Shown piece by piece: positions 3,926 to 52,134 of a stretch of 64,000 nt of DNA. Source of the DNA: a virus. Lineage: Duplodnaviria; Caudoviricetes. Made by a program: the position numbers and the translations under genes. The DNA lies in the IMG/VR virus record IMGVR_UViG_3300010352_000284, positions 1 through 64,000 of that record; one strand, 5' to 3'. The notes under the pieces are model-generated. The model saw nothing but the letters and a program-made list of their open reading frames with translations, had not been told where the DNA came from and made no database searches. How positions within the stretch are numbered: the stretch's first letter is position 1; each line of letters begins with the position of its first letter.

Positions 3926-4684
3926 ATGGGCCAAATCACGAGCGAACTTAGTTTTATTAATTATCTGAAATTGATGATGGGTAATCCTGTCGTAAACGTT
4001 GAAGTGGCCGATGAACAGTTCTCTCAGTGTATATATGATTCTATTCAATTATTCCAACGATATCATTATGGTGAAGGTAATGTTAGAGATGTTTTAACAA
4101 TTTCTCTAAGTGCTGGAACATCTGCTTATCAATTACCAGAAGATATTGATTCTGTACTTGATATAAAATTGAGTCAAGGTCTGAATAATATAAACACATT
4201 ATTTACTCCTCAACACACACTTTTGTACTCGGATTGGGTTAATGGCATGTATCCGGGAGGACAAGGTGCTGCTGGTGGTGCGGCTGGACTTGGTGGAGCA
4301 ATGGCGGTTGGTAATTATTATATCCAAATGATGTATTTAACAGAGATTGAAGATATATTTACAAGAAAATACGTCTGTGATTTGAATTCGAATAATAAAA
4401 TAATGACAGTTAAACCAACACCAAATGTTGATACTACTGGAATTATAATGGTGTATAGAACAGAAAGTGCAATAAATCTTTATAATCATCCATTAGTGAA
4501 AAGATTGGCCTTGGCAAAAGCTAGACAATTACATGCCTGGCACCTCCAAAAATACAACATTTCGATTCCTTCCGGCGCAACATTGAATGCTAGTGAATTG
4601 ATGAGTCGTGCTGTTGAAGAAGAGAAACAAGTTTTGGCGGATATTGTTGCCGAATCAGAACCTCCGATCTTTATTTGTGGATAG
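3926..4684 (+). CDS. gp13: Neck protein, T4 gp13-like
   Basis: LG(MG)NPVVNVEVADEQ..CI...IQ.FQRYHY motif; WHLQKYN.IP.GATLNA C-terminus; position upstream of gp14. Confidence 0.85.
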   Translation: MGQITSELSFINYLKLMMGNPVVNVEVADEQFSQCIYDSIQLFQRYHYGEGNVRDVLTISLSAGTSAYQLPEDIDSVLDIKLSQGLNNINTLFTPQHTLLYSDWVNGMYPGGQGAAGGAAGLGGAMAVGNYYIQMMYLTEIEDIFTRKYVCDLNSNNKIMTVKPTPNVDTTGIIMVYRTESAINLYNHPLVKRLALAKARQLHAWHLQKYNISIPSGATLNASELMSRAVEEEKQVLADIVAESEPPIFICG

Positions 4685-4718
4685 ATGAATTTAATAATTT
4701 AGAAAGGTATTTTGTGTA

Positions 4719-5864
4719 ATGTGCAAGCATGAATTATATTCAGTAATAAATGGAAAAAAGATTTGCTATACTTGTTTAATTGAAAAAGATACTTCGGAAT
4801 TTAATAAAAGAAAAACAACTAAAGGATTCTCTTATAGAAGTGAGTGTTCTGATTGTGAGAAGAAAATGCTTAATACGAAATACGAAACTGATAAATTAAA
4901 ACCAACATACGTCGAAACAGATTTAAACAAACAAAAAACTTGTATTAAATGTGGCGAAGTTAAAAATATTTCTGAATTTTCGTTAGCTAATAAAAAGACT
5001 GGAAGTTATTATAATTCTTGTAAATGTTGTAGAGCAAAAGAATCTAGTATATATTCTAAAAATAGGCGTATACGAAAATCTAAAGAAGAAAAAATAAAAA
5101 TAGAATATAAACAATGTAATACGTGTGGTCAGATAAAAAGTATAATAGAATTTAATAAAAATACATGTTCGAATGATGGTTTTAAAAATATCTGTGTTTG
5201 TTGTGAGAAGGCATATCGTTCAAACTATAATATATTAAATAAAGAAAGAAAACAAAAATATAATGATGAATATAAAGTTAAAAACAAAGATATTATAAAA
5301 CAAAAACAAAAACTTCGACGTGATACGGAAGAACACAAAATGTACCAAAAAGAATATCGCAAGAAAAATAAAGAACGATTAAGAGAACAACATAGAGAGT
5401 ATGAAAGAAATAATAAACAACGATTATCTGAACAACGAAGAAAAAATGAAAAACGTAGATTAGAAGAAAATAAGCAATACAAATTATACAAAACTATAAA
5501 ATGTAATTTATTTTACGCTTTTAGGAATTATTCTAAAAACGGCAAAATAAATTCCTGTTCCGAATATGGTATTGATTTTTCGGCAATATACAACAAAATT
5601 GGCCCTCGTCCTCATAAAGATTTTCAACTTGACCACATTATCCCTGTTCGTGCTTTTAATTTCGATGACCCTGAACATGTAAGATTGTCCCACATTCCTG
5701 AAAATCTTCGTTGGATACATAAAGACGAGAATAATGCTAAGAAAGACAAAATCATTTGGTCTCTTATTTCTTCGTCTCCAGAGTTACTTTCCGTTGCTAA
5801 TAGTCTCCATCTTTCTGAATATCATGATAATATGAATGCTGCCGATATTTTTAATTATCTTTGA
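4719..5864 (+). CDS. Free-standing HNH homing endonuclease with three Zn-ribbon repeats
   Basis: Three CxxC..K...EF...CxxC repeats, a charged helical linker, and DHIIP...ENLRW.....N.AK HNH motif; low GC; lies between gp13 and gp14. Confidence 0.88.
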   Translation: MCKHELYSVINGKKICYTCLIEKDTSEFNKRKTTKGFSYRSECSDCEKKMLNTKYETDKLKPTYVETDLNKQKTCIKCGEVKNISEFSLANKKTGSYYNSCKCCRAKESSIYSKNRRIRKSKEEKIKIEYKQCNTCGQIKSIIEFNKNTCSNDGFKNICVCCEKAYRSNYNILNKERKQKYNDEYKVKNKDIIKQKQKLRRDTEEHKMYQKEYRKKNKERLREQHREYERNNKQRLSEQRRKNEKRRLEENKQYKLYKTIKCNLFYAFRNYSKNGKINSCSEYGIDFSAIYNKIGPRPHKDFQLDHIIPVRAFNFDDPEHVRLSHIPENLRWIHKDENNAKKDKIIWSLISSSPELLSVANSLHLSEYHDNMNAADIFNYL

Positions 5865-5870
5865 CGTTCA

Positions 5871-5876
5871 TAAATA
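5871..5876 (+). promoter_or_regulatory. Late promoter TAAATA 5 nt before ATG 5882
   Basis: TAAATA-ACAGT-ATG. Confidence 0.65.
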
Positions 5877-5881
5877 ACAGT

Positions 5882-6553
5882 ATGGGAAATTTTGATTCAT
5901 TTTCTAAGTTCAATTCAGGTCCATGGTTCGATCATTATTCATCGGCGTATAATAATGAGAGAAAGCTTTATGATTTATTACTTACAGAGGCATACAATCT
6001 TCATGGTGTATGTTCGCGATGGTATCCTATTTCTGTAGACACTGATTATGACAGGATATTTGGAGAGGACAACAACCGGACGATTTTGAATTCGTTTCCC
6101 ATCATGGCTTATTTTGACCTTCCTCGAGAAACGAAGCAATTTTCCACTCAGGGTCAGCTTTGGATTGACAAGTTCCACATTTTCATTTCAAAAAAACACT
6201 TTGCTGCTGCTTGTGCTCTTTATACATCTGGATATTTGCCGAAGATTGGAGACATTGTTCGTTCTGATTATAATGATGTTTATTATGAGGTATTATCTGT
6301 AAAGGCTGAGGAGGAGCAATTTCTTCAAGGCAAGCACAGTTGGGATTTGACAGTTCGTGTTTATGTTGATAGGAATTTGAATGTGAATCCTGCGACGAGT
6401 GCTGATATGGGTAGTTTGCCTAATTACACTACTCAAAATGATATATTTAACATTGGTAGTTGGATAAATAACAATAAAGAAACAGTTGAATATCAGCCGG
6501 AGGTTACAGAATGTCCTCCAAATGATCCTTTCAACGATTGGACAAAGAATTGA
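5882..6553 (+). CDS. gp14: Neck/head-closure protein, T4 gp14-like, copy A (start revised to ATG 5882)
   Basis: ER.LYD.L..EAY..HG...W.P....D.IFGED motif; PKIGDIV; QFLQGK. Confidence 0.8.
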   Translation: MGNFDSFSKFNSGPWFDHYSSAYNNERKLYDLLLTEAYNLHGVCSRWYPISVDTDYDRIFGEDNNRTILNSFPIMAYFDLPRETKQFSTQGQLWIDKFHIFISKKHFAAACALYTSGYLPKIGDIVRSDYNDVYYEVLSVKAEEEQFLQGKHSWDLTVRVYVDRNLNVNPATSADMGSLPNYTTQNDIFNIGSWINNNKETVEYQPEVTECPPNDPFNDWTKN

Positions 6554-6557
6554 GGGT

Positions 6558-6833
6558 ATGATGGATTTAGATAGGATTCAAGAACTGATTGCTGAGATTG
6601 CGAAGACTGGTGACAAACAAACCATTCGAAACATTTGTGAGCTTTTGTCTGAGATGAGTCGGTACAAAGGCAAGAGTGAGAAGGGAACTAGGATGGAAGA
6701 GAGTGTTCAAATTCCAAGAAACATTCAAGACCATGTTAGTTTGATTCTTGAAGGTGAAGGAAAATTTGTTCCCAAGAAGGCTGCGGGCTCCGAAAGCATG
6801 AAGATGAGCCACGCTGCTGACATTCTTGGATAG
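6558..6833 (+). CDS. Hypothetical protein, possibly head-associated
   Basis: GAGGG SD before ATG 6558/6561; ORF track 6486..6833. Confidence 0.6.
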   Translation: MMDLDRIQELIAEIAKTGDKQTIRNICELLSEMSRYKGKSEKGTRMEESVQIPRNIQDHVSLILEGEGKFVPKKAAGSESMKMSHAADILG

Positions 6834-6841
6834 GAGAAGAG

Positions 6842-7372
6842 ATGCCAAACTCGATAATTAAATCATTCGCTAAAAAGACTGACAAGACTACAAAAGCAGT
6901 TGAGAAGAAATGGAACATTGCTGAAAAATTGGTGAAGAAGAAGTATGAATTGACCCCAGATGAAGATTCTGACAGGTTTTATGCTCTTGTTGTTGCCGTT
7001 TTGAAGAAGATGCTGAAACTTGATGAACCAAAACCTGTGACAGAAGATGACGGGACAATCACCACAGCAAACATGGGAGATTACAAATTTGCTCAGAGAA
7101 TGGGAGTTGTTCAGCGTCAAAAGCCAGTAACTCAAGATGAATATGAAGTTGCTGAAAAAGAATCTATTGAAAGTCTTGATGCTGTCAAACTAGCCAAGAG
7201 AATCAAGAAGATTGTGGACACTTTGAATGGTGTGAATGAAGGTACAGATATTTTTGATGAATATATTAATTACTTCAAAACAAAATATGATGACCCAGAA
7301 ATCATAGTTGAAAAAGCTATTGAATATATTGAAAAGAAATTGGGAATTGTCAAAGGAGCGATGGACAAATGA
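6842..7372 (+). CDS. Hypothetical protein, possibly head-internal
   Basis: AGGAG SD; N-terminal helical domain MP..IIKSFAKK....VEKKW..A...FYALVV.VLKKM. Confidence 0.7.
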   Translation: MPNSIIKSFAKKTDKTTKAVEKKWNIAEKLVKKKYELTPDEDSDRFYALVVAVLKKMLKLDEPKPVTEDDGTITTANMGDYKFAQRMGVVQRQKPVTQDEYEVAEKESIESLDAVKLAKRIKKIVDTLNGVNEGTDIFDEYINYFKTKYDDPEIIVEKAIEYIEKKLGIVKGAMDK

Positions 7373-7764
7373 AGTTTTCTGAATATTTGACAGAGATTGC
7401 TAAAGATAAAAAAGATTTGAAGATGGAAACAATCCGCCTGTTTGAGTCTGGAAAGAAAATCATAGACAAGGATGTTCATGCTCTTGCTGATGAACTTGGA
7501 GTTGAACATGATGAACTTGAGAACACAATTTATTCAATCATGTCAGCTTTCTTTTCAAATGGGATGTATATGAAGAGTGGGAAAGATGCGAAATTTGATA
7601 AGAAGGAATTGGTGAAAGGAATTAAGGTTGAGATGGAGCATACTGGAGATAAATATATTGCTGAAAGAATTGCTAAAGACCATTTGACAGAGATTCCTGG
7701 AACTGGTAATAATGATGGATATTATTCTCTGCTTGAGAGAATGGAAGCTGAAGCAGAATTATAA
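7369..7764 (+). CDS. DUF5661-like protein
   Basis: GIKVEMEHT...IAERIAKDHL.E.P....YY..L.RME motif; N-terminus MKFSEYLTE. Confidence 0.7.
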   Translation: MKFSEYLTEIAKDKKDLKMETIRLFESGKKIIDKDVHALADELGVEHDELENTIYSIMSAFFSNGMYMKSGKDAKFDKKELVKGIKVEMEHTGDKYIAERIAKDHLTEIPGTGNNDGYYSLLERMEAEAEL

Positions 7765-7767
7765 ATA
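7760..7767 (+). promoter_or_regulatory. T4-type late promoter TATAAATA
   Basis: Exact consensus followed by AGGAG and ATG 7792. Confidence 0.7.
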
Positions 7768-7791
7768 AGAGTATATAGGAGAATTAGCAAC

Positions 7792-8496
7792 ATGGATTTT
7801 AAGGATTTTCTAAGCAAAAATAGACGCGGAATAAATAAGACTCCAGTCTCGAGTAATGTTAATGAAGATGTAGAAAAAGAGGTCATTTCCGAAAATCACG
7901 TTCCGATTTCTTTCAGACAAGAAACTTATATCCAGAAAGAAATCAAGAAGAACAAGAGATACATCGGTGAGGTCGCTGAGCTTCCATCGACTGTAGATTT
8001 TGAAGAAGGAACCTTGGCCCGCAAAGGACAGACCGTATTTATTAAGCAAGATGGATTATGGGAGAGCTTGATTGAAGGAAACACAGTCACAAGAGAAGTG
8101 GTTAAATACGGTGTCCCTGGTGGTGGTTGTGGTGTAAATGAAGTGAAAAATCTTATAACAGAGCAAGCAGCAGGACGACTATTTTTATTAAACGGAACAA
8201 CCGAAACAACTACAAGTGCTACGGTTGTCGATTTAAAATCATTTGACCAATCTTACAATTTTAATATTATTGGTTTAAAAGTTGAAGGCCCAAAAACGGG
8301 AGTTTATTCGGCAGTTGTTAAATTTTATACATATGAAAATAACTCGTTTAAATTAGCTGCGACATCGGTTATAACAAATACAAATAATGTTGATGGTATT
8401 TTATTTTTAAGTGAAAATAAACAATGGGCCGCTGATTTACAGGTTACCTCTGGAATTGTTGAAGCTCCCGGAATTATTGCTAAGGTTGTACTATAA
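7792..8496 (+). CDS. Hypothetical protein, probably virion-associated
   Basis: Late promoter and SD; N-terminus MDFKDFLSK; beta-rich C-terminal domain. Confidence 0.7.
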   Translation: MDFKDFLSKNRRGINKTPVSSNVNEDVEKEVISENHVPISFRQETYIQKEIKKNKRYIGEVAELPSTVDFEEGTLARKGQTVFIKQDGLWESLIEGNTVTREVVKYGVPGGGCGVNEVKNLITEQAAGRLFLLNGTTETTTSATVVDLKSFDQSYNFNIIGLKVEGPKTGVYSAVVKFYTYENNSFKLAATSVITNTNNVDGILFLSENKQWAADLQVTSGIVEAPGIIAKVVL

Positions 8497-8507
8497 AAGG
8501 AATTTAT

Positions 8508-11267
8508 ATGCGATTAGAAAATAATATAGAAAATTACTATTCTACAAAAACATGTTATGATACAAATAATATTTTTAATGGGTTAGAGTTGTTTGATCCA
8601 GTATATACTATGGATATTAAAAATTTACCAACATCCGCTATACAAAATTATCCATATTTTTCAAAAGTTTATGTTTCCGAAGTTTCTGCTTGGTGTATAT
8701 CTGCAACAAATCCAACATCATCTACAAGGTATTGTAATATATATTTTGATATTTCTAAATTTTCTGGGTGTTTGTTAAATTTATATGCTAATTATAAAAT
8801 CACATCAGGAACTACACCATTAAGTATTGACCATAAATTCTATACAACATCAGCAACTTCTTATGGTTATATCAAGTCAGCTACGAGCGGAGAATTTACA
8901 GATTTTTATAATAACGCGGTTTATTATTTCCCAGAAGGCGTTCAATATGATTATATCCAGATTGGTATAACATCGGGTGGAACAGCTTTAATAAAAAATG
9001 TTCAAATGATATATGCAACTAAAAAAAATCAATATGTTGTTGATAATACATTAACTCCGGTTACAAATTATTTTGGGAATGTTGCGCGTGGTGGAAATAT
9101 ATCAAATGTTATAGGATTGTCAGGATTTGATGTTGATTTGTCTCAATTTAAAATGCTTAAAGATAATTATAATTTAAATGTTATACGATGGCAAATTGTT
9201 CCGCTTAATAGAGATTCTGTTCAGTTTGATTATTATGATTGGGAAAAAGCACAAGAGTGGCTAAATGTTAAAATAGATCAATTAAAAAAAGTATTGTCTT
9301 ATTGTGCTCAGAATAAGATAAAAGTAATAATTGATATGCACGTTCGTTTTGGTTTTGATACTATTAATGGAAAGGGTAAATTTTTAATTGATTCTGATAT
9401 AAGAGAAAAAAATATTGAAATGTGGCGAAGAGTTGCATCTGCAATTAAAGGACACCCCGCAATTTTTGCTTATGGAATTATTAACGAACCCGCAACAAAT
9501 CAAAACACAATTGGAATTTCTGCGGAATATCAAGACACAAGATTTGATATGTCTGTTAATGAATATCAAGAATTGTGCTGTAGGGAAATTCTAAAAATTG
9601 ATCCAACTGCGAGATTTTCATTAACTTGTACTAGACTATCAAACGCATTTGGTTTTACTTCTATTAAACCATCTAAATATCCGGCAGTTTATGAACTTCA
9701 TAATTATTTCACAGGAAGATATACAGTATCCGATTGGGGAGTTTCTGCGGATTACTACCCAGGATATTATGATTCTCAATATAGAAAATATGTTAATAAA
9801 ACAACTATGAAGGAATTTCTACAGCCAGTTAGAGATTTTCAATTGGCTCACAATGTTCCAATTTATGTTGGCGAATTTGGCGTTGTTCGTTGGGCACAAA
9901 ATGCGGCTCAATGGGTTAAAGAATGTATAGAAATATTTGAAGAATGGGGATGGAATTATACAGCGTTTGAATTTTTAAGTTATGCTCATATATTTGTTCC
10001 TTGGTACGACCCCGGAACATATAAAGACGATGTTTATGCACCATTAGCATCTGCACGGCCAACCGCAATTGAATATGAATATATAAAAGGAATATCTGCT
10101 TCAAATTCTCTTTATTCATATGAAGAAAATATTCCATATCCTATTAATGGAATTTCAGCAACAAAAACATCAACTGGGAAGATTAGATTTGGATGGGATG
10201 ACGCAAACTATCCTTTAAGTGCTTATAATTTCAATATATATAAACCAGAATATGGATGGCAAACAATCAAAACGTCCGCGAATTCGTTATTAGTTAGTGC
10301 TACTATAAATACAATATTGTCCGCAAATGTGACATCTACAAATGAATTCGGGACGGCTTCTGGAAATGTAATAAGTGATAAACCAATAGTAGTTTATCCA
10401 TTAGATAATATTTCATCAAAACCATATAGAGCATTATCTGTTAGAAAATTAACATCTGCTTATAATGGGCCGTTGTTGAATATTTATCGCACAGATGGGG
10501 CAAATTTAGATATCTATGCTGACAATACGGGAATTGTTGATTTATCAGCAATTAACAATTTCTTATCAGCAACATCTACAAGTGGATATGTTAGAACATG
10601 GTATGACCAATCTCCGAATTCTGCTCACGTCAGCGCAACACAGTTATCAAGAAGAGCATATATTGGATCGAATGGAGGAAACTTAATTTATAATGGTAAT
10701 ATTCTTGGTGCGCTATTTGATGGAACTAAAGGATATTTCGGAACAAGTGGAGTGTCAGCTTACACATCAGCAACTACATCAATCGCGGCGTTTAAATCAT
10801 TAAGTGCCCAAGCACAACAGACAACTCTTTGGTGTGAAATGTCAGCAGGAACACCATCAACAATATATGCCCCTATGGTAGTTTCTACGGATTTAACAAA
10901 AATTAAAGCGCATATTGTTTCAAATGATGGAACGGTTTTGATAACAAATTCAACTACAAGCGGGCCTATTGCTATAAATCAGCAAACCAATATTGTATCA
11001 GTTCAAGATGATTTTACAACAATAACTACAAAAGTCAATGGTAATAAATATTCAAAAAATACAGTTTCGTATATAGCATCCCGTGCTGCTCATCCAATTG
11101 ATTTGTCTCAGAACGGATATTTTTCATTTGGAGCAAAAACATCTCCCAGCACTTATAATACAGGAATTAACGCAATTGTTTCGGAATTGATAGTATTCGA
11201 TAAACACATACCGGATAATGAATTAGAGTTATTGGAAAATAATTTATTAGATTCTTATAAAAATTAG
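8508..11267 (+). CDS. Multidomain glycoside hydrolase (GH5/clan GH-A) with C-terminal arabinofuranosidase-B/ConA-like domain
   Basis: NVIRWQI, IIDMH, acid/base IINEP, ELHNY, nucleophile IYVGEFG, GWNY; C-terminal RALSVRKLTSAYNGPL...GYVRTWYDQS. Confidence 0.82.
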   Translation: MRLENNIENYYSTKTCYDTNNIFNGLELFDPVYTMDIKNLPTSAIQNYPYFSKVYVSEVSAWCISATNPTSSTRYCNIYFDISKFSGCLLNLYANYKITSGTTPLSIDHKFYTTSATSYGYIKSATSGEFTDFYNNAVYYFPEGVQYDYIQIGITSGGTALIKNVQMIYATKKNQYVVDNTLTPVTNYFGNVARGGNISNVIGLSGFDVDLSQFKMLKDNYNLNVIRWQIVPLNRDSVQFDYYDWEKAQEWLNVKIDQLKKVLSYCAQNKIKVIIDMHVRFGFDTINGKGKFLIDSDIREKNIEMWRRVASAIKGHPAIFAYGIINEPATNQNTIGISAEYQDTRFDMSVNEYQELCCREILKIDPTARFSLTCTRLSNAFGFTSIKPSKYPAVYELHNYFTGRYTVSDWGVSADYYPGYYDSQYRKYVNKTTMKEFLQPVRDFQLAHNVPIYVGEFGVVRWAQNAAQWVKECIEIFEEWGWNYTAFEFLSYAHIFVPWYDPGTYKDDVYAPLASARPTAIEYEYIKGISASNSLYSYEENIPYPINGISATKTSTGKIRFGWDDANYPLSAYNFNIYKPEYGWQTIKTSANSLLVSATINTILSANVTSTNEFGTASGNVISDKPIVVYPLDNISSKPYRALSVRKLTSAYNGPLLNIYRTDGANLDIYADNTGIVDLSAINNFLSATSTSGYVRTWYDQSPNSAHVSATQLSRRAYIGSNGGNLIYNGNILGALFDGTKGYFGTSGVSAYTSATTSIAAFKSLSAQAQQTTLWCEMSAGTPSTIYAPMVVSTDLTKIKAHIVSNDGTVLITNSTTSGPIAINQQTNIVSVQDDFTTITTKVNGNKYSKNTVSYIASRAAHPIDLSQNGYFSFGAKTSPSTYNTGINAIVSELIVFDKHIPDNELELLENNLLDSYKN

Positions 11268-11278
11268 TATTTAATTCC

Positions 11279-11286
11279 TATAAATA
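11279..11286 (+). promoter_or_regulatory. T4-type late promoter TATAAATA upstream of the long fibre gene
   Basis: Exact consensus; the leader has a small GCC-TTCG-GGC hairpin and GGAG SD. Confidence 0.7.
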
Positions 11287-11328
11287 CTCCTATAATGGCC
11301 TTCGGGCGTCCTTTTGGAGATTATGTTA

Positions 11329-16935: not shown

Positions 16936-16936
16936 T

Positions 16937-17800
16937 ATGGATTTTAACACAATAACATTAATACATAATCAGGAGAAGAATCTAGCTCAATTGTTAGATT
17001 CGTATTCCTCACAATCTATCAAACCAAACAATTTTATATTTGTTCTTGATAGATGTACTGACGATTCTGAAAATATGATAAATGATTTTTCCAACAAGTA
17101 TAACACAACTATAATTAAAAATGAAAATGGCTCGGATTTTATGGCTGGGTATTGTAGAGATTTGGCATATTCAACATTTAATAATCTCCCTGTAATTTTT
17201 CTTGATGGTGATTGTATTCCTTCTCCTGATTTATTTCATCAGTTTGCTTTGGAATTTGAAAGAAACAAAAATGGCATAGTAATTGGAAGTAGAAGATTAG
17301 AAGATAATAATGGCCATATTGATGAAGATAGAAGAGTAATTATTCCTTGGGTAAAAGGACTTATATTTAATGATGATAAAAATTTGGATATAACGAATTT
17401 ATTTTTCGCTAAGAATGGTCTATTGACGATTTCTTGTTGTCTTGGAATTACACCATCCTCGGCTAATATCATTTCAAACATTAATGAAAAGATAACTGGG
17501 AATAGAAGAATATTTTCAAGTTCGTTTGATGGTAGATATGGTGGAGAAGATGATGTTGTTGGTTTGATTGCAATGTTTTACAATATTCAAATTTCTTCAA
17601 TAGCAACAAATCATCACGTTCTTCATAAATGGCATGAAAATCACATGAAGGAAGAATTTCAAGACCGAATAAATATTGAATATGAAAAAATAAAAGAACA
17701 GGCAATTAAAGATAATGCTCCAGGACTATATAATAAAGACATTGATTTTTCTGAATATGTACAGAATTTTGTTTTTTCTCAAATGATGAACAGTAAATAG
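16937..17800 (+). CDS. Family-2 (GT-A) glycosyltransferase, copy 1 (start revised to ATG 16937)
   Basis: IHNQE, VLDRCTDDS, FLDGDCIP (DxD), FDGRYGGEDD, HKWH; starts 1 nt after the fibre stop codon. Confidence 0.88.
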   Translation: MDFNTITLIHNQEKNLAQLLDSYSSQSIKPNNFIFVLDRCTDDSENMINDFSNKYNTTIIKNENGSDFMAGYCRDLAYSTFNNLPVIFLDGDCIPSPDLFHQFALEFERNKNGIVIGSRRLEDNNGHIDEDRRVIIPWVKGLIFNDDKNLDITNLFFAKNGLLTISCCLGITPSSANIISNINEKITGNRRIFSSSFDGRYGGEDDVVGLIAMFYNIQISSIATNHHVLHKWHENHMKEEFQDRINIEYEKIKEQAIKDNAPGLYNKDIDFSEYVQNFVFSQMMNSK

Positions 17801-41209: not shown

Positions 41210-41226
41210 CTTTGACGGAGAATATT

Positions 41227-44200: not shown

Positions 44201-47200
44201 CAATTTCGGATATTCAATATTCTACACCAATTAATATAGATGTTAAATTTGACTATGATAATTATGTTTTATCAGCATCTACCATACTTAGCGCGGGAAG
44301 GAATCCAATAATTACAAGAGTATATCCAACCCAATCAGACATTTCTATATATAGCAACGATAGTAAATTGTTTGAATTTTCTGTGTCTGGGGTTGATTTT
44401 ACTCATGGAGAAACCGCAACATATGAAGTTTATAAAAGCGCAGATAATATTAATTGGTTTTTATTTGATGCGGCTTCCGTTACAAAAAATATCACAATAT
44501 ATGATACTCCAACTTCAGGACAATCGGTTTGGTATTATGTAAATGTAGTTTCAAATTATGGATGCTCAGCAACATCACAAAAAGTATTAGCTTATGGAAA
44601 TATTGCACCAACAATAACAATTTCGTCACAATCGTCAGCATATAATACATCAACATCTGCTACAATTTCTGGAACATTTTATGATTTAGATTTTGGGAAA
44701 ACTATTACTATTAATTCTTCTTCTAGATATGATTCTGTTAGCGCAATAACAGTTTCATCTGATAAAGGATATATAGGAAATGCCAATATTGTATATCAGC
44801 AAACAGGGGCCATTCCAGGGATGTGGAATTTAATTTGGAATAATCCAACTGCTTCAGCTACAAAAATATCAGCAACAATATATGATACTTTTGGCAAAAA
44901 TTCAACAGCATCATCTTCAATTTCTTCTGTAAAAACAGCTCCAATAATTACTTTATTGAATCCACCAACATCCGGAATTTTTTCATATCAAGCAAACCCT
45001 GTAACAGTTAGTGCAACGGTTTTTGGAACGTCTAATATTTCGGCAGTTGATTTTTACTTATCCGGAACAACATCGACATTAATAGGAGCCGCATCTTTAT
45101 CAGGTTCAACTTGGTACAAAACATTTAATGTTAGTGCTGTTTTGTCCTCTTTTAATAATATTGGTGGAACTTATGGAATTTTCGCGTCAGCAATTGATTC
45201 AAATAGTTTGACGGCGATCTCGGAAGTTCATCCAATATCAGCAAACAATCTTCCACAATTCTTTCTAACAAACCCTGTTGGCCAATCTTGTCATTCAGGA
45301 ACTATTGTTATTGAAGGAAATGTTTCAGATAAGGATAATTCAAATGAAAATCTTGTTGAAATGTATGTCGGTGGTACGAAAATAACAAGCGCAATGACAA
45401 CTGCGAAGAAGTTTTTATATTCGTGGACAAATCCAACAACAGGAATATTTGATATCACCTTCACCACTCGAGATTCTGCATTGTCTGCCGATTATTCAAA
45501 TACCACTTATACGTTATCTGCTGGTCAGAAACCAACAATTACCGTGTATGATAACTATACGCATGGAATAAAAAATGATTCAACTGTGATTCCATATATT
45601 AATGTTGTAGGAACTTCGGCAATAGTATCCGCAAGTTCGTCTTCGGCTGATTCATATTCTATAAACTATTGGTATTGTGATAGTTCCGAAGCAAAAACAA
45701 CATTAATATCTGCTAATACAACATCAGCAAACGTTACATTCCAAAAATCATTTGGAAGCACAACAAACATTTTGGTAGAAACTGTTACGATTGCTGGATG
45801 CTCTGATGCTCGTATTCTAAAATTTTATACACTTCAGCCAATAGTTGAACTTGAAAATTTTAATAATTGCTCTGAGAAAATAAGAATAGCCGGAACATTA
45901 GATTTTGATGGTATAATTGGAACAAATTCTTTAATAGATACAACATTTATAGCTAAATTATACGCTGATGATGTATATATTTCAGATTTAACACTTTCTC
46001 AATATGGGGCAAAATATAGATTTGATTATTTGTGGGAAACCCCAATTGTTGGTACATCTAGTTTGAAATTTGAATGTGCTACTTCTTATGGAAATTACAG
46101 CACAACTAAGCAAATTCTCCCAATAATGCCAAGCACAGTAATTAATCAAATAGTCCCATCAGAATTTATATCAAATTATAACAACATTTATATCGTGTCA
46201 GCTAATTCGATTCAGTTAAGTTCTTCTATTTTAGATGTTGCTACAAATCAAATAATTATAGAAACTGAGAACTCGATTAATGTAGCTTATTCAAATTCAA
46301 GTTCAGCTATTATTGGATTGAAAAAAGATATTCTTTATAATATCAAATCAATAATTACGACAAATGGTGGATGTCAATTGATTTCCGATTACATCACTAT
46401 TATTAGAACAGATTATTCTCAAAAAATAACAAATGTCGCGTCGGTTGGCTGTAGCAATTCGTTGATGAGCGTCGCTGGATATATTGGAAAACTAAGAAAT
46501 ATAACTGGAAACTATGATTCATCAGCAACTCCAAATATTTTAATTACCGAAACAATTAATAGTGATGTTTATGAGCAGCCATCAAATACGTTAATATATT
46601 CGGTTTCAGCAGACTCATTAAATAATTATCAAGATGTTAATTCTATTGGATTTGTATTTGATTATTATCCGTCTGTTGGTACGAGTTCGATTCAATTATC
46701 ATCAAATTCATCCTTGTTTAATTCTTATACAACCAGCATTGTTATACCTACAATTGTTTCAGCACAGGCGGTTAATTTAACAGCAGCATCAACTACAGTT
46801 GCTATAGGAAATTCCTTATCAATAGGAATACAGGATTATTCAAATTTAGCAAGTTGCATTATTTATGCGAATGATAATATTATAGCATCTTCATTTACAA
46901 CATCATGGATTCCTATGTATCCAGGAATTTATAATATTGTAGCAAAAACAAAAAATATTAATGGGTGCCCAATCAATTCTAATATCTTAACAATAACAGT
47001 TACATCAATGCCTGTTGGAGTAATTACAACACCCGCAAATAATTCCTATATAATGTCAGGAACTCAGTTTGATGTATCTGTTCTAACATCTCCAAGTTAT
47101 TATGGAAATATAAGTGCTGTTGAATTTTATGACAGTACTAACACGTTAATAGATTATGGAACAAATATTGGAAATGTTTGGACTGTTACTGGAGTATCAA

Positions 47201-48645
47201 ATATATCTGGAGTTTATGCTAAAATTTATGATACTTCTTTGTTAAGCGCGACTACCAATAACGTACATATTAATTTAATAATGCCAACAACTACAACAAT
47301 TTCAGCATCTTCAGCGAGTTATAATATGTATGATAATGTCGTGGTAGCTGTTTCGGGATATTCTCCAAATACAGGAATATCAACAATTGAAATATACGAA
47401 GTTGTTGGTACATCATTGGTTTATATTTCTGCTACAAATTCTGAATTGATTATACCAGCGAGTATCTTCGGTCAAGGAAACCACACATTAAGAGCAAAAA
47501 CGATTGATTATTATGGAGCATATTCATATTCCCAAGACATTTCATTCTCAGTTATACCAGCTAGCAAAAACACATTCCCAAAAATTACATATGTTTCTTC
47601 TAATCCTGAAACAAAAATTTCTGAATATGGTAATGAAATTGTTTCAATATTTACAATTTCTGATAACTCTTATGGAATATTAAGTGCTTCAATCGGGGTT
47701 GATAATGGAACAGTTAAGAGCATTACCTCGTTAAATGGGCAAAACAAATACCAGATTGAAGTTGGGGTTTCTGGAACTTGTAATTTAACAGTTTCCGCGA
47801 CGAATAAATTAAATAATACTAAAACCGAGACAATTTATAATTATATTTTCTCGTGTCAAGATAATCGAGATATAAATCTAACAAATTATATTCCAAATCA
47901 CTTAGCATTTGATGACTCTGGTAATACTTCGGAATTTTTCACTTTAACGAAATTCTATGAATATTATTTGAACACACTTTACACAAATTTGGATGAACCA
48001 TGTTCTATTGGTGTCCTGGAAAAAACTTCACGTCTAAGAAATCTCCACGATCCCGATAAAATGGAACTGGATTATATTCAATATTTCGCAAATTACTTGG
48101 GATATAATGTAGATGTCAATAAAGCAGAACTTGGAGGGTTTACAACGTCTCCCAATAGCTCTTCCTACAATGACGGCCCGGACAATTCGGAAATTTTTAG
48201 CGAATATCAGAAAAAAGCATTGCGATTTGTAGTTAGAAATCTTCCAAACTGGTATTCAATTAAAACCACCAGAAATTCGATCAAAATGCTACTGTTATCA
48301 TTTGGAATTTTTGGAGATTTGCTGGAAGTTTATACAAATGATTATACAAACGACTGGTTTATAAATTCTATACCCCCAGGAACTTATGTTGCTGACGATA
48401 TGATTATTGATAGATATCCAACTCCGCACATGTTTGTTGAAATAGATATTAATAGTACGAATTTGAATTACATATATGGTTCTGAACAAAATCTAACATC
48501 ATTATACAAAAGTTTTGATTCGATACGGCCAGCAAACGTAGTATTTGAAGGCATTCTTGGTAAAACTGAGAATTCAACTCAACCAATATATACTGTAAAT
48601 GCTGCTTGTATGATGGAAAAGGACTATTTTATTTCAAACCTCTAA
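41227..48645 (+). CDS. Giant baseplate protein: DNRLRE/CBM96-like domain, beta-propeller, Ig-like repeats, C-terminal gp7/P2-gpI-like domain
   Basis: ARSLIKF...A.LR...HRITRDW....ATW..W...GGD...DVTDIV..W....NYGF; propeller blades (IWFTT.NGLWRYD, VWFG, LWV); DPDKM..DYIQYFANYLGY and WYSIKTT...IK.LL..FG at the C-terminus; follows gp6. Confidence 0.78.
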   Translation: MSKIDLRVTKGQNYNDNSLYSLSFELQNNDTSAVSLSGIRIVGNFWSQSPSYSNLTSGIYSNGIIKQIVSASSDNSSQTGIVQLSNTQSVYRVNHQMIDSSKIAPIVTLNIPANGYYISPVSVTNRTDFYFDIILTEIPPSNNYSVSWFIPNTAETYSGITTAVDSPKISFISAAPSVRVDSRRSDSKFIIGWADSKSIPSNCALISANYYIKPTSGNFFYSSKPNNHWYSKLSDSTICIDDSFFSLEQWNGSAWMPVSEYNEYGMIDSGMVYGPTMSNQLTYISTSADYSVYIQSGSSNPLSANKSDKNILKLNSTGAAKARSLIKFNSLNIPTSATSIRNAVLRITTNAISNGWTYTGTSGNVSVHRITRDWNPSEATWTSATVFSPWTSQGGDFEDSSNIWIGNTNLNNSFTSASSNSAFYVDVNVTDIVEYWRQNPSENYGFAVKLNPAIQENSISAVSYSINSSRSTSGTPTLFVAYNSPNSNGPVPNVTIESPSSNSSIINSCDFVVSTNILAGAVSDVKIYQQTDSMNNVYIGSLKYTSNNMWTGTLPLNVSATTIKLFARAESDLGVYGFSDIIQYTVVNVSNPIINPMGIFCYSDDFNVSGSYFQSAPNSILVEYSGNYIPDTLKINKIVEDKIFPNVIWFTTSNNGLWRYDPATGVAKNYNTQNSPILSDNIYAIATKYDGNIYIGCRQLDSVIGIGIVRFDGNNWNSFTDNDWEIFDKSNSTLTDFSNIDVSSIIVDSSDNVWFGFSWQTAQNILRMVGNNINSPFIQKYTADNSGINNMKYENGKLVVCHQNTSISLYSSASNNFSTITNSYSNARDISVDSSGNLWVCNDGGLSFYKTSTSTWTYANDTNTPAWPNGLNGNSTHFRNNSCNFIILSGTNKYFGFDTGNSNQYNGGLVKYTGTTFDLSATSSTNNWSVIDKDTTISFLSNKTKSGVITTNGTLWVSTDTGITKLNSVWSSPSKKKIIQTSAVNNGNWSSTISDIQYSTPINIDVKFDYDNYVLSASTILSAGRNPIITRVYPTQSDISIYSNDSKLFEFSVSGVDFTHGETATYEVYKSADNINWFLFDAASVTKNITIYDTPTSGQSVWYYVNVVSNYGCSATSQKVLAYGNIAPTITISSQSSAYNTSTSATISGTFYDLDFGKTITINSSSRYDSVSAITVSSDKGYIGNANIVYQQTGAIPGMWNLIWNNPTASATKISATIYDTFGKNSTASSSISSVKTAPIITLLNPPTSGIFSYQANPVTVSATVFGTSNISAVDFYLSGTTSTLIGAASLSGSTWYKTFNVSAVLSSFNNIGGTYGIFASAIDSNSLTAISEVHPISANNLPQFFLTNPVGQSCHSGTIVIEGNVSDKDNSNENLVEMYVGGTKITSAMTTAKKFLYSWTNPTTGIFDITFTTRDSALSADYSNTTYTLSAGQKPTITVYDNYTHGIKNDSTVIPYINVVGTSAIVSASSSSADSYSINYWYCDSSEAKTTLISANTTSANVTFQKSFGSTTNILVETVTIAGCSDARILKFYTLQPIVELENFNNCSEKIRIAGTLDFDGIIGTNSLIDTTFIAKLYADDVYISDLTLSQYGAKYRFDYLWETPIVGTSSLKFECATSYGNYSTTKQILPIMPSTVINQIVPSEFISNYNNIYIVSANSIQLSSSILDVATNQIIIETENSINVAYSNSSSAIIGLKKDILYNIKSIITTNGGCQLISDYITIIRTDYSQKITNVASVGCSNSLMSVAGYIGKLRNITGNYDSSATPNILITETINSDVYEQPSNTLIYSVSADSLNNYQDVNSIGFVFDYYPSVGTSSIQLSSNSSLFNSYTTSIVIPTIVSAQAVNLTAASTTVAIGNSLSIGIQDYSNLASCIIYANDNIIASSFTTSWIPMYPGIYNIVAKTKNINGCPINSNILTITVTSMPVGVITTPANNSYIMSGTQFDVSVLTSPSYYGNISAVEFYDSTNTLIDYGTNIGNVWTVTGVSNISGVYAKIYDTSLLSATTNNVHINLIMPTTTTISASSASYNMYDNVVVAVSGYSPNTGISTIEIYEVVGTSLVYISATNSELIIPASIFGQGNHTLRAKTIDYYGAYSYSQDISFSVIPASKNTFPKITYVSSNPETKISEYGNEIVSIFTISDNSYGILSASIGVDNGTVKSITSLNGQNKYQIEVGVSGTCNLTVSATNKLNNTKTETIYNYIFSCQDNRDINLTNYIPNHLAFDDSGNTSEFFTLTKFYEYYLNTLYTNLDEPCSIGVLEKTSRLRNLHDPDKMELDYIQYFANYLGYNVDVNKAELGGFTTSPNSSSYNDGPDNSEIFSEYQKKALRFVVRNLPNWYSIKTTRNSIKMLLLSFGIFGDLLEVYTNDYTNDWFINSIPPGTYVADDMIIDRYPTPHMFVEIDINSTNLNYIYGSEQNLTSLYKSFDSIRPANVVFEGILGKTENSTQPIYTVNAACMMEKDYFISNL

Positions 48646-48675: not shown

Positions 48676-51600
48676 ATGTCGAATTTGAATAGTTATACAT
48701 ATATTTGTTCTGCTGGATTAGCTTCTGTAACGTCAGCGGGTTCTCTCGGACCATATTTTTCGTTAACTCACTTCTTACCAATCTATGACTTTAGACTTGA
48801 TAAGAATATATGTGATACTTCAGCAATTAATGTTAGTTCATTAAATTATACATCAGCAACACATTCTTCTTTGAGTGGTTTCGAAACAATATATAACAAT
48901 TCAGAGTTGTCAGGTTTTGGTTCATATGAAATAAAAGAATTCAATGCTTTATATTATAAAAATGTTAGTGGTACTGGACCTTTATTCACGGGAAGCCTAC
49001 AGAAAACAGGATCCAATAAAGTAAATTCACTTTCTGGAAAAGTTCTTCAGCCTCTTGTTTCGGCTACGTCATTCATAAGCACTACGGCACCAGGAAATCT
49101 TAGCGCAGTTGGTTCTTATCAACTTCTTACTAATGGTAATGTTTTGTCTTGGAACCCATTATCTGCTAGCTCAACTTCATGGAATTTTAGAAATTTGTAT
49201 CGAGTAGTTTCATATTCTCCAAATGCAAATACTACTCCAGGAATATGTAAAGGAAATTATAAATGCCGCATCCCAGCAGGAACAGGCTCTTTCAAATTTA
49301 ACATGCTCGCAATATATGCGACAAGAGTTAATGAATATGGATATTATGATCCAGGAGTTGTTGGTTCTCCTTACAATCCAACATTATTTGCAATAGTATG
49401 CTTTGATACTCCTCAAGAAAAATATGATGCTGCGGGTTCAATGAATGCTTTTGAAGCGAATGTTGAACTACAATTTTCATTACAATCTTCAGCAGCTTCT
49501 CCAGTTTATTTAAATACAGATTATTTTACAAGAATTCCAACATCAAACGTTACATCTGCTTATGCTTTGAATTATGATGGAGATGTTGTTATTTCTTGCT
49601 CAGCCAATCCAGGATCTTGGGTTCCTAAAGCAAAACTAACAGTTACAGATTCTGAAAAAAATCAACTTCATTTGGCGTATGATGGTTTAAGATATACTGA
49701 TATAACAACAAAAAGTTTTGCACCATATCCAACATATCCTCCAACAGCAAATATGTCAGTTTTAGATATTGATACAGCTTGCCCAGATGACGCTCTGATA
49801 CAAGCTGGCCCAAATTGTGAAGCTACGGGAATTAAATCAATTGCTCTTGGGTGCTATTCATCAGCAACAGGATATGCGGACAATACTCCAATCGATTTCG
49901 GAAATACTGAACCGGATCCAATAACATTGTATCAAAGTGGTAGAGGTGGATATACATTCGCATATGGTGTTGAAAACTTATCACAGGGATTAGCATCTAC
50001 AACATTTGGTTATGGTAACAGTGCTATTGGTTTTGGATCATTTGCAGGAGGACATTTATCATTAGCTTCTTCTGATATGAATTCTGTCAGCATTTATTAT
50101 TCTGCTCCATCCGATGGTTTGAATTTCGCATATGGTTTCAAAACATCAGCGGTTGGGGATTCTGATAATATAAATCCCGATGGCACAAGTTTATCAAGTA
50201 TTTGGACTTGGCTAAATAATGTTTCAATTTACGGAGGCAATGCTGCATTAAATGTTCAAACGTTAGCAAAAGGAAATGCGAACGTTTCTTTGAACATGAA
50301 TACAACGACTTATGGAACTTGTAATTTTGCAACAGGTTTCAGAACATCAGCAATTGGTAATATAAACGTTGCTACAGGAATAAATACGCTTGCAAAAAAT
50401 ATTTTATCACAGGCTCATGGTGATAGTACATCGGCTTTAAGTATAATGTCTTATGCGTATGCTGGAAATGCAATTGCTGATGAAAAAGCAAAAGGTTCGT
50501 TTACATTTGGCGGTCCATCAATTCAAGGATCAGGCAATGAAACATATTCAATAATAATTCCGGGATACAGATATATATCAATTAGTAATGGCGAAGATAG
50601 TGTTCAGGATTTTAGTCATTATAGTATTTCAATTTCTCAATATGAAAAAACATATAATAACTCTGTTGGCAGTTTTGTATTTGGATTAGCATCATCTGCA
50701 ACAGACACATCAAATCATTCAATACTATTTGGAATTAAAAATAAAATATCTGGGCAAAATTCGAAAGTATTTGGAAATATGAACGATGTGTCATATTCTT
50801 CAGACTATTCCAGCATATTTGGCGAATCTAATGCATTATCATATACAAGTTATTCGCATATTATTGGATCTCTTAATAGTGAAACATACTCATCATTTTC
50901 AAATATTGTTGGTAATCGTAATATTTTAACAGCATCCCAATACAATACTATTCTTGGGTTTACAAATCAGTTAACAAATTCAGATCAAATAAATGTTCTT
51001 GGTTCTAATAATATAGCTTCGGATGATATACGTTCAACTTACATAGGATTTAATAATATAGGGTCTCAAAATAATTATTCATACACTCTTGGACGAAATA
51101 ACTCAATAATATCAGCCACAAATTGTTATACTGTTGGAGTTGGTAACACAATTTATAATAGTGTAAATTCCTTCGCGATTGGAAATTCTGTTACGGCTGC
51201 AAATGTTACGAATTCTGTTAGTATTGGTTTTGGTTCAGTTTCGACCGTTTCAAATTCCGTAAATATCGGTTCTTGCAATCTATCGGAACTTAATTTAAAA
51301 TCCCCGGTAATCAATATTGACGCAAAATCTTGTAATCTTGGAACCAGTACTTCAATCTCTATCAAAGCCGACAAAATTACTCTTGATGGCTATACTGGAA
51401 ATATCGAAAAGTATAAATACGCTGTTGGATACAGTAGATATCGTTTTCCGCAAGGAAGCGAGGCTAATATAAAAATTTGTAAAATGCGATGTGATGAATT
51501 CTCTGGAAAAGTTGAAACTTGCTGGTTGAACATTTCTCACGAACCTGGAAAACAATTTTATTGCTTTATTACAAACGATCCTTCTGCAATAAGGCCGTCG

Positions 51601-52134
51601 ACTCCAACATCTCCATTTTCTTATGACCTAGTTAAGTATGTCATGTTCAATCCAACAACATTTAAATTTTTTATAGGTACGGATGATTCGAATATGGATG
51701 AATACTTTAAAAATGGATATGTATTATTAATGTATTCTGAAACGAATGTTCTTGACCCAATAGTTGATTATTATTTATTTAATGATGTTAATAAATTTTA
51801 TGGATATGTGATAGCTAAAGATTCAAGCAATGATACTCATGATTATATTCATTCGACATGTAAATTTAATGAAAATGGGCAATCATTTACATCTGATGCT
51901 GAATTTAATATTGTCACTGTTACTGACACCGCTAGGGATGTATATTTAACATTTATTTCACGGTCTGGTCAAACACAAACGTCTGATACAATTGGACATG
52001 GGAATTTTTCAGATTATCGTATATTTACAACGTCGAATGGATGTTATATAAATTATCTGTCTGGAAAACGGTCGAAGGATTGGGATGCTTTCTCAAATAA
52101 TAGTACTATTAGAGCCGGAATGCTTCTTGGATAA
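48676..52134 (+). CDS. Baseplate-anchored tail fibre with tail-collar-like N-terminus and YadA-head-like beta-roll repeats
   Basis: N-terminal ..AGL.....G....LTHF / F.F.ML.IY / LFAI pattern; repeated x(A/G)xG.N.xxG 14-residue motifs. Confidence 0.65.
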   Translation: MSNLNSYTYICSAGLASVTSAGSLGPYFSLTHFLPIYDFRLDKNICDTSAINVSSLNYTSATHSSLSGFETIYNNSELSGFGSYEIKEFNALYYKNVSGTGPLFTGSLQKTGSNKVNSLSGKVLQPLVSATSFISTTAPGNLSAVGSYQLLTNGNVLSWNPLSASSTSWNFRNLYRVVSYSPNANTTPGICKGNYKCRIPAGTGSFKFNMLAIYATRVNEYGYYDPGVVGSPYNPTLFAIVCFDTPQEKYDAAGSMNAFEANVELQFSLQSSAASPVYLNTDYFTRIPTSNVTSAYALNYDGDVVISCSANPGSWVPKAKLTVTDSEKNQLHLAYDGLRYTDITTKSFAPYPTYPPTANMSVLDIDTACPDDALIQAGPNCEATGIKSIALGCYSSATGYADNTPIDFGNTEPDPITLYQSGRGGYTFAYGVENLSQGLASTTFGYGNSAIGFGSFAGGHLSLASSDMNSVSIYYSAPSDGLNFAYGFKTSAVGDSDNINPDGTSLSSIWTWLNNVSIYGGNAALNVQTLAKGNANVSLNMNTTTYGTCNFATGFRTSAIGNINVATGINTLAKNILSQAHGDSTSALSIMSYAYAGNAIADEKAKGSFTFGGPSIQGSGNETYSIIIPGYRYISISNGEDSVQDFSHYSISISQYEKTYNNSVGSFVFGLASSATDTSNHSILFGIKNKISGQNSKVFGNMNDVSYSSDYSSIFGESNALSYTSYSHIIGSLNSETYSSFSNIVGNRNILTASQYNTILGFTNQLTNSDQINVLGSNNIASDDIRSTYIGFNNIGSQNNYSYTLGRNNSIISATNCYTVGVGNTIYNSVNSFAIGNSVTAANVTNSVSIGFGSVSTVSNSVNIGSCNLSELNLKSPVINIDAKSCNLGTSTSISIKADKITLDGYTGNIEKYKYAVGYSRYRFPQGSEANIKICKMRCDEFSGKVETCWLNISHEPGKQFYCFITNDPSAIRPSTPTSPFSYDLVKYVMFNPTTFKFFIGTDDSNMDEYFKNGYVLLMYSETNVLDPIVDYYLFNDVNKFYGYVIAKDSSNDTHDYIHSTCKFNENGQSFTSDAEFNIVTVTDTARDVYLTFISRSGQTQTSDTIGHGNFSDYRIFTTSNGCYINYLSGKRSKDWDAFSNNSTIRAGMLLG

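Follow-up and report, generated by a model that had tools for sequence, protein, structure and literature searches.

A Ser-specific Ser-Ala motif on exposed neck and tail proteins of uncultured T4-like phages and its possible role as an acceptor site for protein modification

We analyzed positions 1-64,000 of an IMG/VR viral record of 80 kb (IMGVR_UViG_3300010352_000284; estimated completeness of the record, 36%), hereafter the window, the plus strand of which encodes a T4-like neck, tail and baseplate module. In five proteins of this module (a gp7-like baseplate protein, two fibers, a GH5 protein and a gp14-like neck protein), the dipeptide Ser-Ala (SA), mostly preceded by Thr, Val, Ile or Leu, is over-represented. 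The resulting signature, [T/V/I/L]-Ser-[Ala, less often Gly], is a real, Ser-specific linear motif on exposed neck and tail proteins. Here we describe the motif, follow it through relatives of the phage and weigh whether it could be the acceptor site of a phage-encoded serine-modifying enzyme, for which glycosyltransferases (GTs) of family GT2 are the leading candidates. The genes concerned are listed below with their positions in the window; where SA counts are given, they are set against counts expected from within-protein shuffles.

3926-4684, plus strand: gp13-like neck/adaptor protein; SA 3 against 1.3 expected, p=0.13
5861-6553, plus strand: gp14-like neck protein, first copy; two SA sites
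8508-11267, plus strand: GH5 (cellulase-family) protein, 919 residues, virion-associated; Pfam PF00150, E=2.7e-17
11314-16935, plus strand: fiber, 1873 residues, beside the neck genes (a position like that of T4 wac); no Pfam match
16937-17800 (16886-17800 from TTG), plus strand: GT2 glycosyltransferase no. 1; PF00535
18355-19050, plus strand: gp14B, second T4 gp14-like neck protein; PF11649
19350-20132, plus strand: gp15-like tail sheath stabilizer; phrog_227; SA 2 against 0.7, p=0.15
23449-25194, plus strand: tail sheath (gp18), 581 residues; phrog_23; SA 4 against 4.8
37434-38621, plus strand: GT2 glycosyltransferase no. 2, 395 residues; PF00535
38609-41209, plus strand: gp6-like baseplate wedge protein; phrog_219; SA 5 against 4.5
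41212-48645, plus strand: gp7-like distal baseplate protein, 2477 residues; Pfam Disaggr_repeat and a weak Big_7 match
48676-52134, plus strand: fiber, 1152 residues; SA 19 against 10.6

The module also includes terminase, sheath, tube, tape-measure-like, hub and gp25-like proteins, and no capsid gene lies within the 64-kb window. The phage has no characterized relative and is known from metagenomes only. Cultured phages gave no match in a megablast search with 22 kb of the window or in a tblastn search with the 1152-residue fiber, and the identity of the sheath to that of any cultured phage does not exceed 27%.

The Ser-Ala motif in the neck and tail module

The strongest deviations from the shuffled expectation were found in the gp7-like protein (52 SA against 19.1, z=8.5) and the GH5 protein (24 against 5.9, z=8.4, with five Ala-Ser (AS) dipeptides), followed by the 1873-residue fiber (36 against 13.6, z=6.7) and gp14B (6 against 1.0, z=5.2); enrichment of the 1152-residue fiber is moderate (z=2.8). 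When the five proteins are pooled, the 137 SA dipeptides compare with 50.5 expected (z=14); none of the 400 possible dipeptides deviates more, and the reverse dipeptide AS stays at expectation (45 against 50.9). One third of the alanines in these proteins are preceded by serine, and the serine itself is preceded by Thr, Ile, Val or Leu at 103 of the 137 sites. For the tripeptide [TVIL]-S-A, this count compares with an expectation of 15.6; the corresponding counts are 47 against 18.5 for [TVIL]-S-G and 15 against 12.3 for [TVIL]-T-A. The remaining 48 open reading frames (ORFs) of the window together have 41 SA dipeptides, with 52.9 expected.

The original prediction, which described SA as pervasive in exposed virion proteins, gave manual counts that were all reproduced exactly (24 SA and 5 AS in the GH5 protein, 52 SA in the gp7-like protein, 6 in gp14B, 5 in gp6, 4 in gp18, 3 in gp13, 2 in gp15, 1 in terminase and none in ligase and PhoH). 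It had proposed comparing SA, AS, Thr-Ala (TA) and Ser-Gly with shuffled sequences, and the enrichment survives this correction for composition. Over-representation is borne out for the five proteins above; gp6, gp18, gp13 and gp15, which had been included, are individually at or near chance. Similarly, the low counts noted for non-virion and buried proteins are right, but they lie at or slightly below chance and reflect no special depletion. The two positional claims also hold: the four gp18 sites all fall in the N-terminal half, within residues 109-221, and the conserved C-terminal region of the gp7-like protein, some 280 residues, contains no SA at all.

The hexamers encoding Ser-Ala occur 137 times in frame, compared with 14 and 2 times in the other two frames, and their codon usage is ordinary, with every Ser and Ala codon represented, so the signal resides on the protein and not on the DNA. 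Since, in addition, the opposite strand is unremarkable, a DNA-level motif was ruled out, and the shuffles together with the SA/AS asymmetry rule out an artefact of composition. Part of the SA count of the 1873-residue fiber is due to internal repeats, each carrying the motif. In this fiber, a unit of the type E-F-E-Y-L-D-x-V-S-A-N-I-Q-T-Q-L-N is present in eight or more copies, and T-S-A-D-I-P-Q-I-P-A-T and T-S-A-S-P-T-F blocks recur as well. Several sites of the 1152-residue fiber lie within T-S-A-[IV]-G repeats; the gp7-like and GH5 proteins are enriched without detectable repeats.

Several features of the neighboring genes deserve mention in their own right. Besides the region matching its catalytic family, the GH5 protein has a beta domain at the N terminus and a beta-sandwich region at the C terminus, and PF09206 is present in its orthologs. 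Encoded among neck genes, this glycanase of about 900 residues presumably acts as a depolymerase carried by the virion. Two tandem GH5 copies (6109-8793 and 10001-12727) are found in a relative, L163, on a contig of about 300 kb. The two gp14-like paralogs, 12 kb apart, are 44% identical. The second of them, gp14B, directly follows a GT2 gene and has threefold more SA sites than the first (six and two); two gp14-like copies are also found in the related genomes G011 and G013. A homing-endonuclease-like gene (phrog_314; 21047-21823) lies directly upstream of the large terminase gene, with an ORF overlap of about 60 nucleotides (nt), and its family is present in multiple copies in the relative G003. 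Two adjacent genes encode tail-tube-like proteins (25205-25864 and 25869-26480), the second of which matches tube profiles weakly.

Distribution and turnover of the motif among relatives

To trace the motif beyond the window, gp6 was used as a marker for relatives. A search of IMG/VR with the single gp6 protein gave no match, but a gp6 alignment retrieved 80 loci with 10-kb flanks, and gp6 homologs proved abundant in metagenomes. For 50 loci, the window included, the protein sequence available downstream of gp6 amounted to 1 kb or more. In 27 of these, the observed/expected ratio (O/E) of SA in the downstream proteins is 2.4-3.9, with the same preference at position -1; it is below 1.5 in 13 loci and intermediate in 10. 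The hub and tape-measure proteins encoded upstream of gp6 stay near an O/E of 1 even in SA-rich loci. In a quick gp6 tree, in which the placement of some long branches is unsure, the outgroups are SA-poor, and so are two or more nested clades, among them the sister of the window's own clade.

Complete genomes give the same picture. In three SA-rich ones (G002, G003 and G007), significantly enriched proteins are confined to the neck and distal-tail regions, and G003 encodes, beside gp14, an 1870-residue protein analogous to the larger window fiber with 62 SA against 19.2 expected. Three SA-poor complete genomes (G011, G012 and G014) contain no enriched protein at p<1e-3. The tail, neck and fiber proteins of T4 itself show no excess (43 SA against 51 expected; 45 AS). 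Thus, the enrichment is confirmed for five window proteins and extends to a whole clade, in which it can be switched on or off.

Two side observations concern individual proteins. A weak version of the bias is present in gp6 across the clade (120 homologs, P0001-P0120, pooled: SA 670 against 499 expected, AS 374), and the gp6 of the window lacks it. Furthermore, two large Ser- and Ala-rich proteins of G007 (168885-173516 and 176602-179313) are depleted in SA (6 against 18.9 and 8 against 14.8), the opposite of their tail neighbors.

Comparison of orthologs shows that SA content follows the lineage. In SA-rich genomes, the observed and expected counts are 23 and 5.4 for the gp15 family, 19 and 6.2 for gp14, 10 and 4.3 for gp13, and 36 and 23.3 for the sheath; the respective values in SA-poor genomes are 2 and 2.7, 1 and 3.1, 2 and 1.5, and 17 and 16.3. 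For the gp7-like family (128 against 41.8 in SA-rich and 3 against 7.2 in SA-poor genomes), the contrast is the weakest because the short SA-poor members match only the C-terminal part, which is free of SA even in the window. The family of the 1152-residue fiber, pooled over SA-rich genomes, has 82 SA against 41. A full-length protein of about 1000 residues encoded after gp6 has 34 against 8.6 in G018, G023 and G024 and 13 against 9.2, at similar Ser and Ala content, in the sister subclade G019, G021 and G022. Orthologs of the GH5 protein at 42-49% identity have 16-18 SA sites, and a 26%-identical relative of similar length, which contains an additional FN3 domain, is at expectation (8 against 8.5).

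The positions of the sites are replaced while their number is kept. The gp7-like proteins have 38-52 sites each (38-48 in the orthologs and 52 in the window); orthologs at 45% identity have only 17-25 of the 52 window positions in common with it, and those at about 29% have 8-9. Conservation of Ser and Ala is somewhat higher within the motif than outside it. The gp15 sites of SA-rich genomes are located within insertions and a C-terminal extension, both missing from SA-poor orthologs; the gp15 of G007 (196670-197629) has 10 sites. Dependence on lineage among orthologs, turnover at a maintained number, placement in insertions and mixed structural contexts together fit a lineage-specific trans-acting cause better than a requirement of the fold, and the motif thus appears not to be dictated by the fold.

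The sequence context was analyzed for 1289 sites in 65 non-redundant enriched proteins. As this set was picked for SA enrichment, its flanking preferences alone are informative. Position -1 favors Thr (2.7-fold over expectation), Val (2.6-fold), Leu (2.3-fold) and Ile (1.6-fold), and Asp is rare there (0.2-fold); taking this set and the window sites together, one of the four favored residues is present in 69-75% of sites. Hydrophobic residues tend to occupy position -3, the stretch from -4 to +5 is poor in Lys and Arg, and after the Ala, at +2, Pro (0.2-fold) and Lys are excluded. In the same enriched proteins, TA is under-represented, with an O/E of 0.71.

Glycosyltransferases encoded beside the tail genes

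The two GT2 genes of the window are embedded in the tail module. GT2 no. 1 (287 residues from the ATG at 16937, or 304 from the TTG at 16886) begins 2 nt after the TAA stop of the 1873-residue fiber, and matches PF00535 with E=2.1e-12 and 47.8 bits, the cut-off being 23.3. GT2 no. 2 also matches this family above the curated cut-off (37.5 bits); its gene is an insertion that separates the gp25-like gene from gp6, two genes with no other between them in G012 and G007, and overlaps the start of gp6 by 13 nt. The two proteins are paralogs with 29% identity. Both contain a DxD motif (LDGDC and TDGDC) and a GGED motif, and the residues D107, G108 and D109 are invariant across 23 homologs. Neither has a transmembrane segment (maximal Kyte-Doolittle hydropathy over 19 residues, 1.39 and 1.07), and both are predicted to be soluble. 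A membrane-bound bactoprenol glucosyltransferase of the GtrB type, known from phage seroconversion, was ruled out since the C-terminal transmembrane helices are missing.

The AlphaFold2 model of GT2 no. 1 (mean predicted local distance difference test, pLDDT, 92.8) is a single domain with a GT-A Rossmann-like fold. Foldseek matched it to the chondroitin polymerase K4CP, ppGalNAc-T1/T2, TarS and SpsA (E=5e-11 to 3e-8, TM-score about 0.55), with equal scores for polypeptide GalNAc-transferases and for polysaccharide and teichoic-acid enzymes. Assignment to the polypeptide GalNAc-transferase (GT27) type was rejected, as Pfam finds no ricin-type lectin domain in either protein. A sequence search of the PDB gave weak TarS-like matches for one of the two window GT2s and none for the other.

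Relatives encode a different GT2. The three complete SA-rich genomes share 14 families missing from the three complete SA-poor ones, 10 of which were annotated; three of the 14 are GT-related, namely a GT2 of about 240 residues (PF00535 and PF02709; hereafter GT2-240), a Glyco_tranf_2_5 protein and an unannotated neighbor of GT2 genes. When the window clade is considered together with all SA-rich genomes, the only families in common are a homing endonuclease, a ligase and small unknowns. A GT2-240 profile gave strong matches in 13 SA-rich records and one intermediate record, and in none of the 11 SA-poor records. The 12 SA-rich records that lack it comprise five of the window clade, four small fragments, and G001, G009 and G010 (G001 and G009 are 69% and 56% complete, and G010 is terminally repeated).

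In G018 and G023, the GT2-240 is a domain of a multi-glycosyltransferase of 1100 residues. This protein, with TOD1/MUCI70-like and GT2 domains, belongs to a glycosylation island just downstream of the fiber genes (G018 49164-59000, equivalent to L182 9164-18998; G023 29171-34132), which also encodes a second GT2, a DUF6492 protein, a B12-binding radical SAM enzyme, methyltransferases and a GT47/RXYLT1-like protein. The island of G007 has two GT2s and one GT11; the GT2-240 of this genome is located at 237880-239351. G019 retains the N-terminal part of the 1100-residue protein, has lost the GT2-240 domain, and its tail proteins are mostly SA-poor; its gp7-like protein (36988-40791) still has 23 SA against 6.9, either as a decaying relic or as a recently exchanged module. 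The complete genome G012, which is sister to the window clade, has neither type of GT2 and is SA-poor.

A role in T4-style DNA glucosylation is unlikely for these GTs because the three complete SA-rich genomes encode no ThyA-family hydroxymethylase; a search for TET/JBP, run without a positive control, was negative. The 10-kb flanks of 80 GT2-240 homologs contained no SA-rich ORF, but even in known SA-rich genomes the targets lie more than 10 kb away.

Readings of the motif and comparison with known systems

A linear motif that is specific for residue order and for serine, is displayed on exposed proteins, depends on the lineage and turns over at constant density is the pattern expected of the sequon of a lineage-specific enzyme. 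We therefore favor, tentatively, a reading in which the motif is the acceptor site of a phage-encoded cytoplasmic serine-modifying enzyme, with O-glycosylation by GT2s as the leading candidate; although its probability stays somewhat short of even, glycosylation would be the best explanation available for the motif. In the window phage and a large clade of T4-like myoviruses, all of them uncultured, selection would hold the motif at high density on the solvent-exposed neck, distal-baseplate and fiber proteins, and an enzyme of the phage would modify the serine hydroxyl in the cytoplasm while these proteins are made. The most obvious enzymes would be soluble GT-A/GT2 glycosyltransferases performing O-glycosylation, with their genes placed inside the tail operon, as in the window, or in a glycosylation island beside the tail genes, as in relatives. 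The positions of the sites would drift at a maintained density, as they do in viral glycan shields, and the sequon would decay in lineages that lose the initiating transferase. The scheme in full, in which the clade coats its necks, baseplate peripheries and fibers, but not its heads, with O-linked glycans at [T/V/I/L]-S-[A/G] by means of soluble GT2s, keeping the density of sites until loss of the initiating transferase lets them decay, is possible rather than probable. It is plausible that the motif is read in trans, the modification being a glycan which the GT2s of the window attach in this phage; taken by itself, the assignment to these two enzymes is doubtful.

A number of observations count against glycosylation by these GT2s. 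The family of the window GT2s is confined to the window subclade (G000, G016 and L003-L007), and the SA trait is far wider; hence, these two genes cannot be its general cause. At the Pfam level, GT2s are found in 16 of 20 records, including the SA-poor complete genomes G011 and G012, and so do not discriminate. G001, which is 69% complete, is SA-rich without the GT2-240 family, and G010, with its terminal repeats, has no GT2 match of any kind and nevertheless shows weak enrichment (12 against 4.2 and 18 against 8.4). The association of GT2-240 with SA is confounded by shared ancestry and fragmentary records and offers few independent contrasts. In hhalign, the two GT2 families align only over the N-terminal, nucleotide-binding half, so that replacement of one by the other in function must be assumed. 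The fold of the window GT2 matches GT-A enzymes generically and is uninformative as to the acceptor. Finally, a cyanophage-like genome with a 42%-identical GT2-240 homolog, the single genome covered by this comparison, shows no clear SA signal by a coarse DNA-level proxy (TCNGC 142 against 114 expected, the listed hits showing no obvious clustering by strand when read through), whereas the same proxy gives 142 against 73 with clear clustering on the coding strand in the SA-rich L003; by eye, a 3550-residue protein of the cyanophage-like genome has no excess of [TVIL]SA.

The original prediction, in which the two window GT2s glycosylate the motif virion-wide, accordingly needs to be narrowed. 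Its sequon reading gains from the Ser-specific, lineage-dependent motif with its maintained density and loses the window GT2s as a general cause: the co-occurrence with GT2 genes which it proposed to look for fails at the Pfam level, where neither group of relatives is set apart, and relatives without the window family are still enriched. "Virion-wide" is likewise too broad, as relatives show no enrichment in their major capsid proteins (SA 4 against 3.1 in G007 and 5 against 3.0 in G003).

The alternative that survives best, although we consider it unlikely, is a structural motif: an h-x-h-S-A pattern (h, hydrophobic) in beta-rich domains, with the Ala in the core and the Ser at strand edges or caps, in which case the differences between lineages would stem from exchange of fiber modules. 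Positions -3, -1 and +1 (the Ala) alternate as hydrophobic or small residues, and hydrophobic enrichment at -3 and -1 is also what a beta-strand packing motif would produce. In an AlphaFold2 model of the GH5 protein (pLDDT 73.6), 9 of the 24 SA sites lie within one residue of a strand end. This periodicity and the frequent strand-end position, both unfavorable to a sequon, keep a structural explanation alive. Many sites of the two window fibers are located in conserved repeat units, and the mixture of SA-rich and SA-poor tail proteins in G019 is what module exchange would give. However, the sites of the GH5 model are distributed over coil, strand and helix (15, 6 and 3) in proportions like those of other serines (38, 18 and 4), so that a single structural context is unsupported by this model, and sites are also found in insertions and tails. 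Between sister lineages, full-length orthologs that share a fold and are similarly rich in Ser and Ala show three- to fourfold differences in SA, and unrelated folds (the GH5 enzyme, gp14, gp15 and the fibers) carry the motif alike. Furthermore, Thr does not substitute for Ser, as the depletion of TA indicates, and the fibers of T4 lack the signal.

Somewhat less likely still is a reader other than a GT, which might attach another group to the serine (phosphorylation, acylation, or addition of a phospho-sugar or polymer) or be a protease specific for small-x-Ala, an assembly chaperone or a host factor. The statistics that point to a trans-acting reader apply equally to such a factor, and no one GT family accounts for all SA-rich genomes. 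The sites cleaved by enzymes of the signal-peptidase type follow a -3/-1 rule, which [TVIL]-x-A resembles. Against a reader of this kind, the gene-content comparison revealed no kinase, acyltransferase or protease common to SA-rich genomes, while 3 of the 14 specific families are GT-related, and dozens of cleavage sites in each structural protein are implausible.

We regard as improbable that the motif is unmodified and selected by the surroundings of the virion, for protease resistance, weak adhesion to polysaccharides or solubility, with lineage differences following host range. Enrichment is limited to surfaces exposed outside the cell, the trait is lineage-dependent, and the depletion of Lys and Arg near the sites could reflect avoidance of trypsin-like cleavage. 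Yet no enrichment is seen in the capsid despite its equal exposure, and the strict order of Ser before Ala and the preference for Ser over Thr are hard to obtain from bulk physical properties. That the enrichment is an artefact arising from composition, from internal repeats or from a signal in the DNA is scarcely credible: Ser and Ala are locally co-enriched in the fibers and some sites are copies within repeats, but composition cannot produce the order asymmetry, the repeat-free gp7-like and GH5 proteins are enriched, the signal is in frame only with all Ser and Ala codons used, and it is replicated in dozens of divergent genomes.

The signature is both strong and specific; it is confined to exposed tail proteins and can be present in one lineage and absent from its sister. 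Should it mark a modification, modified phages and their exact modified sites could be read from metagenomes, substrates would be identified for many orphan GTs encoded beside phage tail genes, and the finding would be relevant to how tail fibers bind receptors, resist proteases and are recognized by immune systems; as a glycan sequon, it would be the first readable one for phage virion glycosylation. Even without a glycan, a three- to fourfold difference in one ordered dipeptide between orthologs calls for an explanation.

Among known systems, the closest in biological setting are mycobacteriophages, in which phage-encoded GTs are considered to decorate virion proteins (Che8 and relatives; Freeman et al. 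2023, as summarized in PMC11256854 and cited in PMC12582341). The enzymes are considered to act in the cytoplasm and to give a glycan shield, as proposed here; the modification is demonstrated there, and the major capsid protein is named as the target. The candidate system of the window, derived from sequence, would instead act on the neck, baseplate periphery and fibers, the capsids of relatives being without motif enrichment. It has a short motif visible in the sequence, at about one site per 44 residues, and belongs to a different type of phage, an uncultured T4-like myovirus of low G+C content. To our knowledge, a few mycobacteriophages are the only phages with demonstrated virion glycosylation, and we know of no sequon or other acceptor motif described for it.

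The preferences of the oligosaccharyltransferase PglL of Neisseria and Burkholderia resemble those of the motif, in that Ser is strongly preferred over Thr and Ala adjoins it (optimal tag, WPAAASAP; PMC8423747, PMC12645811). In contrast to the situation here, PglL is periplasmic, transfers glycans en bloc from lipid carriers to disordered Ala- and Pro-rich stretches and favors Ala at -1. The motif described here has Thr, Val, Leu or Ile at -1, disfavors Pro after the Ala and has many of its sites in folded beta-rich domains of virion proteins, which assemble in the cytoplasm, and no oligosaccharyltransferase gene accompanies it here. The O-glycosylation sequon of Bacteroidota, D-(S/T)-(A/I/L/V/M/T), which acts outside the cytoplasm, likewise consists of three residues and allows Ala after the hydroxyl residue. 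It differs in that Asp at -1 is required there and avoided here, and in that Thr is accepted there and not here.

Enzymes that work in the cytoplasm offer further parallels. The AIDA-I/TibA autotransporter heptosyltransferases and HMW1C-type enzymes glycosylate adhesins in the cytoplasm, on Ser or on Asn in N-x-S/T. They are bacterial, belong to families other than GT2 and recognize another site context, but share with the proposed system a cytoplasmic enzyme that places many sugars on a large beta-rich surface fiber before its export or assembly. The chlorovirus PBCV-1, a eukaryotic virus, glycosylates its capsid protein with virus-encoded multidomain GTs; these glycans are N-linked at non-canonical sites and have been demonstrated chemically. 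Its cytoplasmic GT sets, which combine multidomain GTs with methyltransferases, are similar in logic to the island with the 1100-residue multi-glycosyltransferase in G018 and G023.

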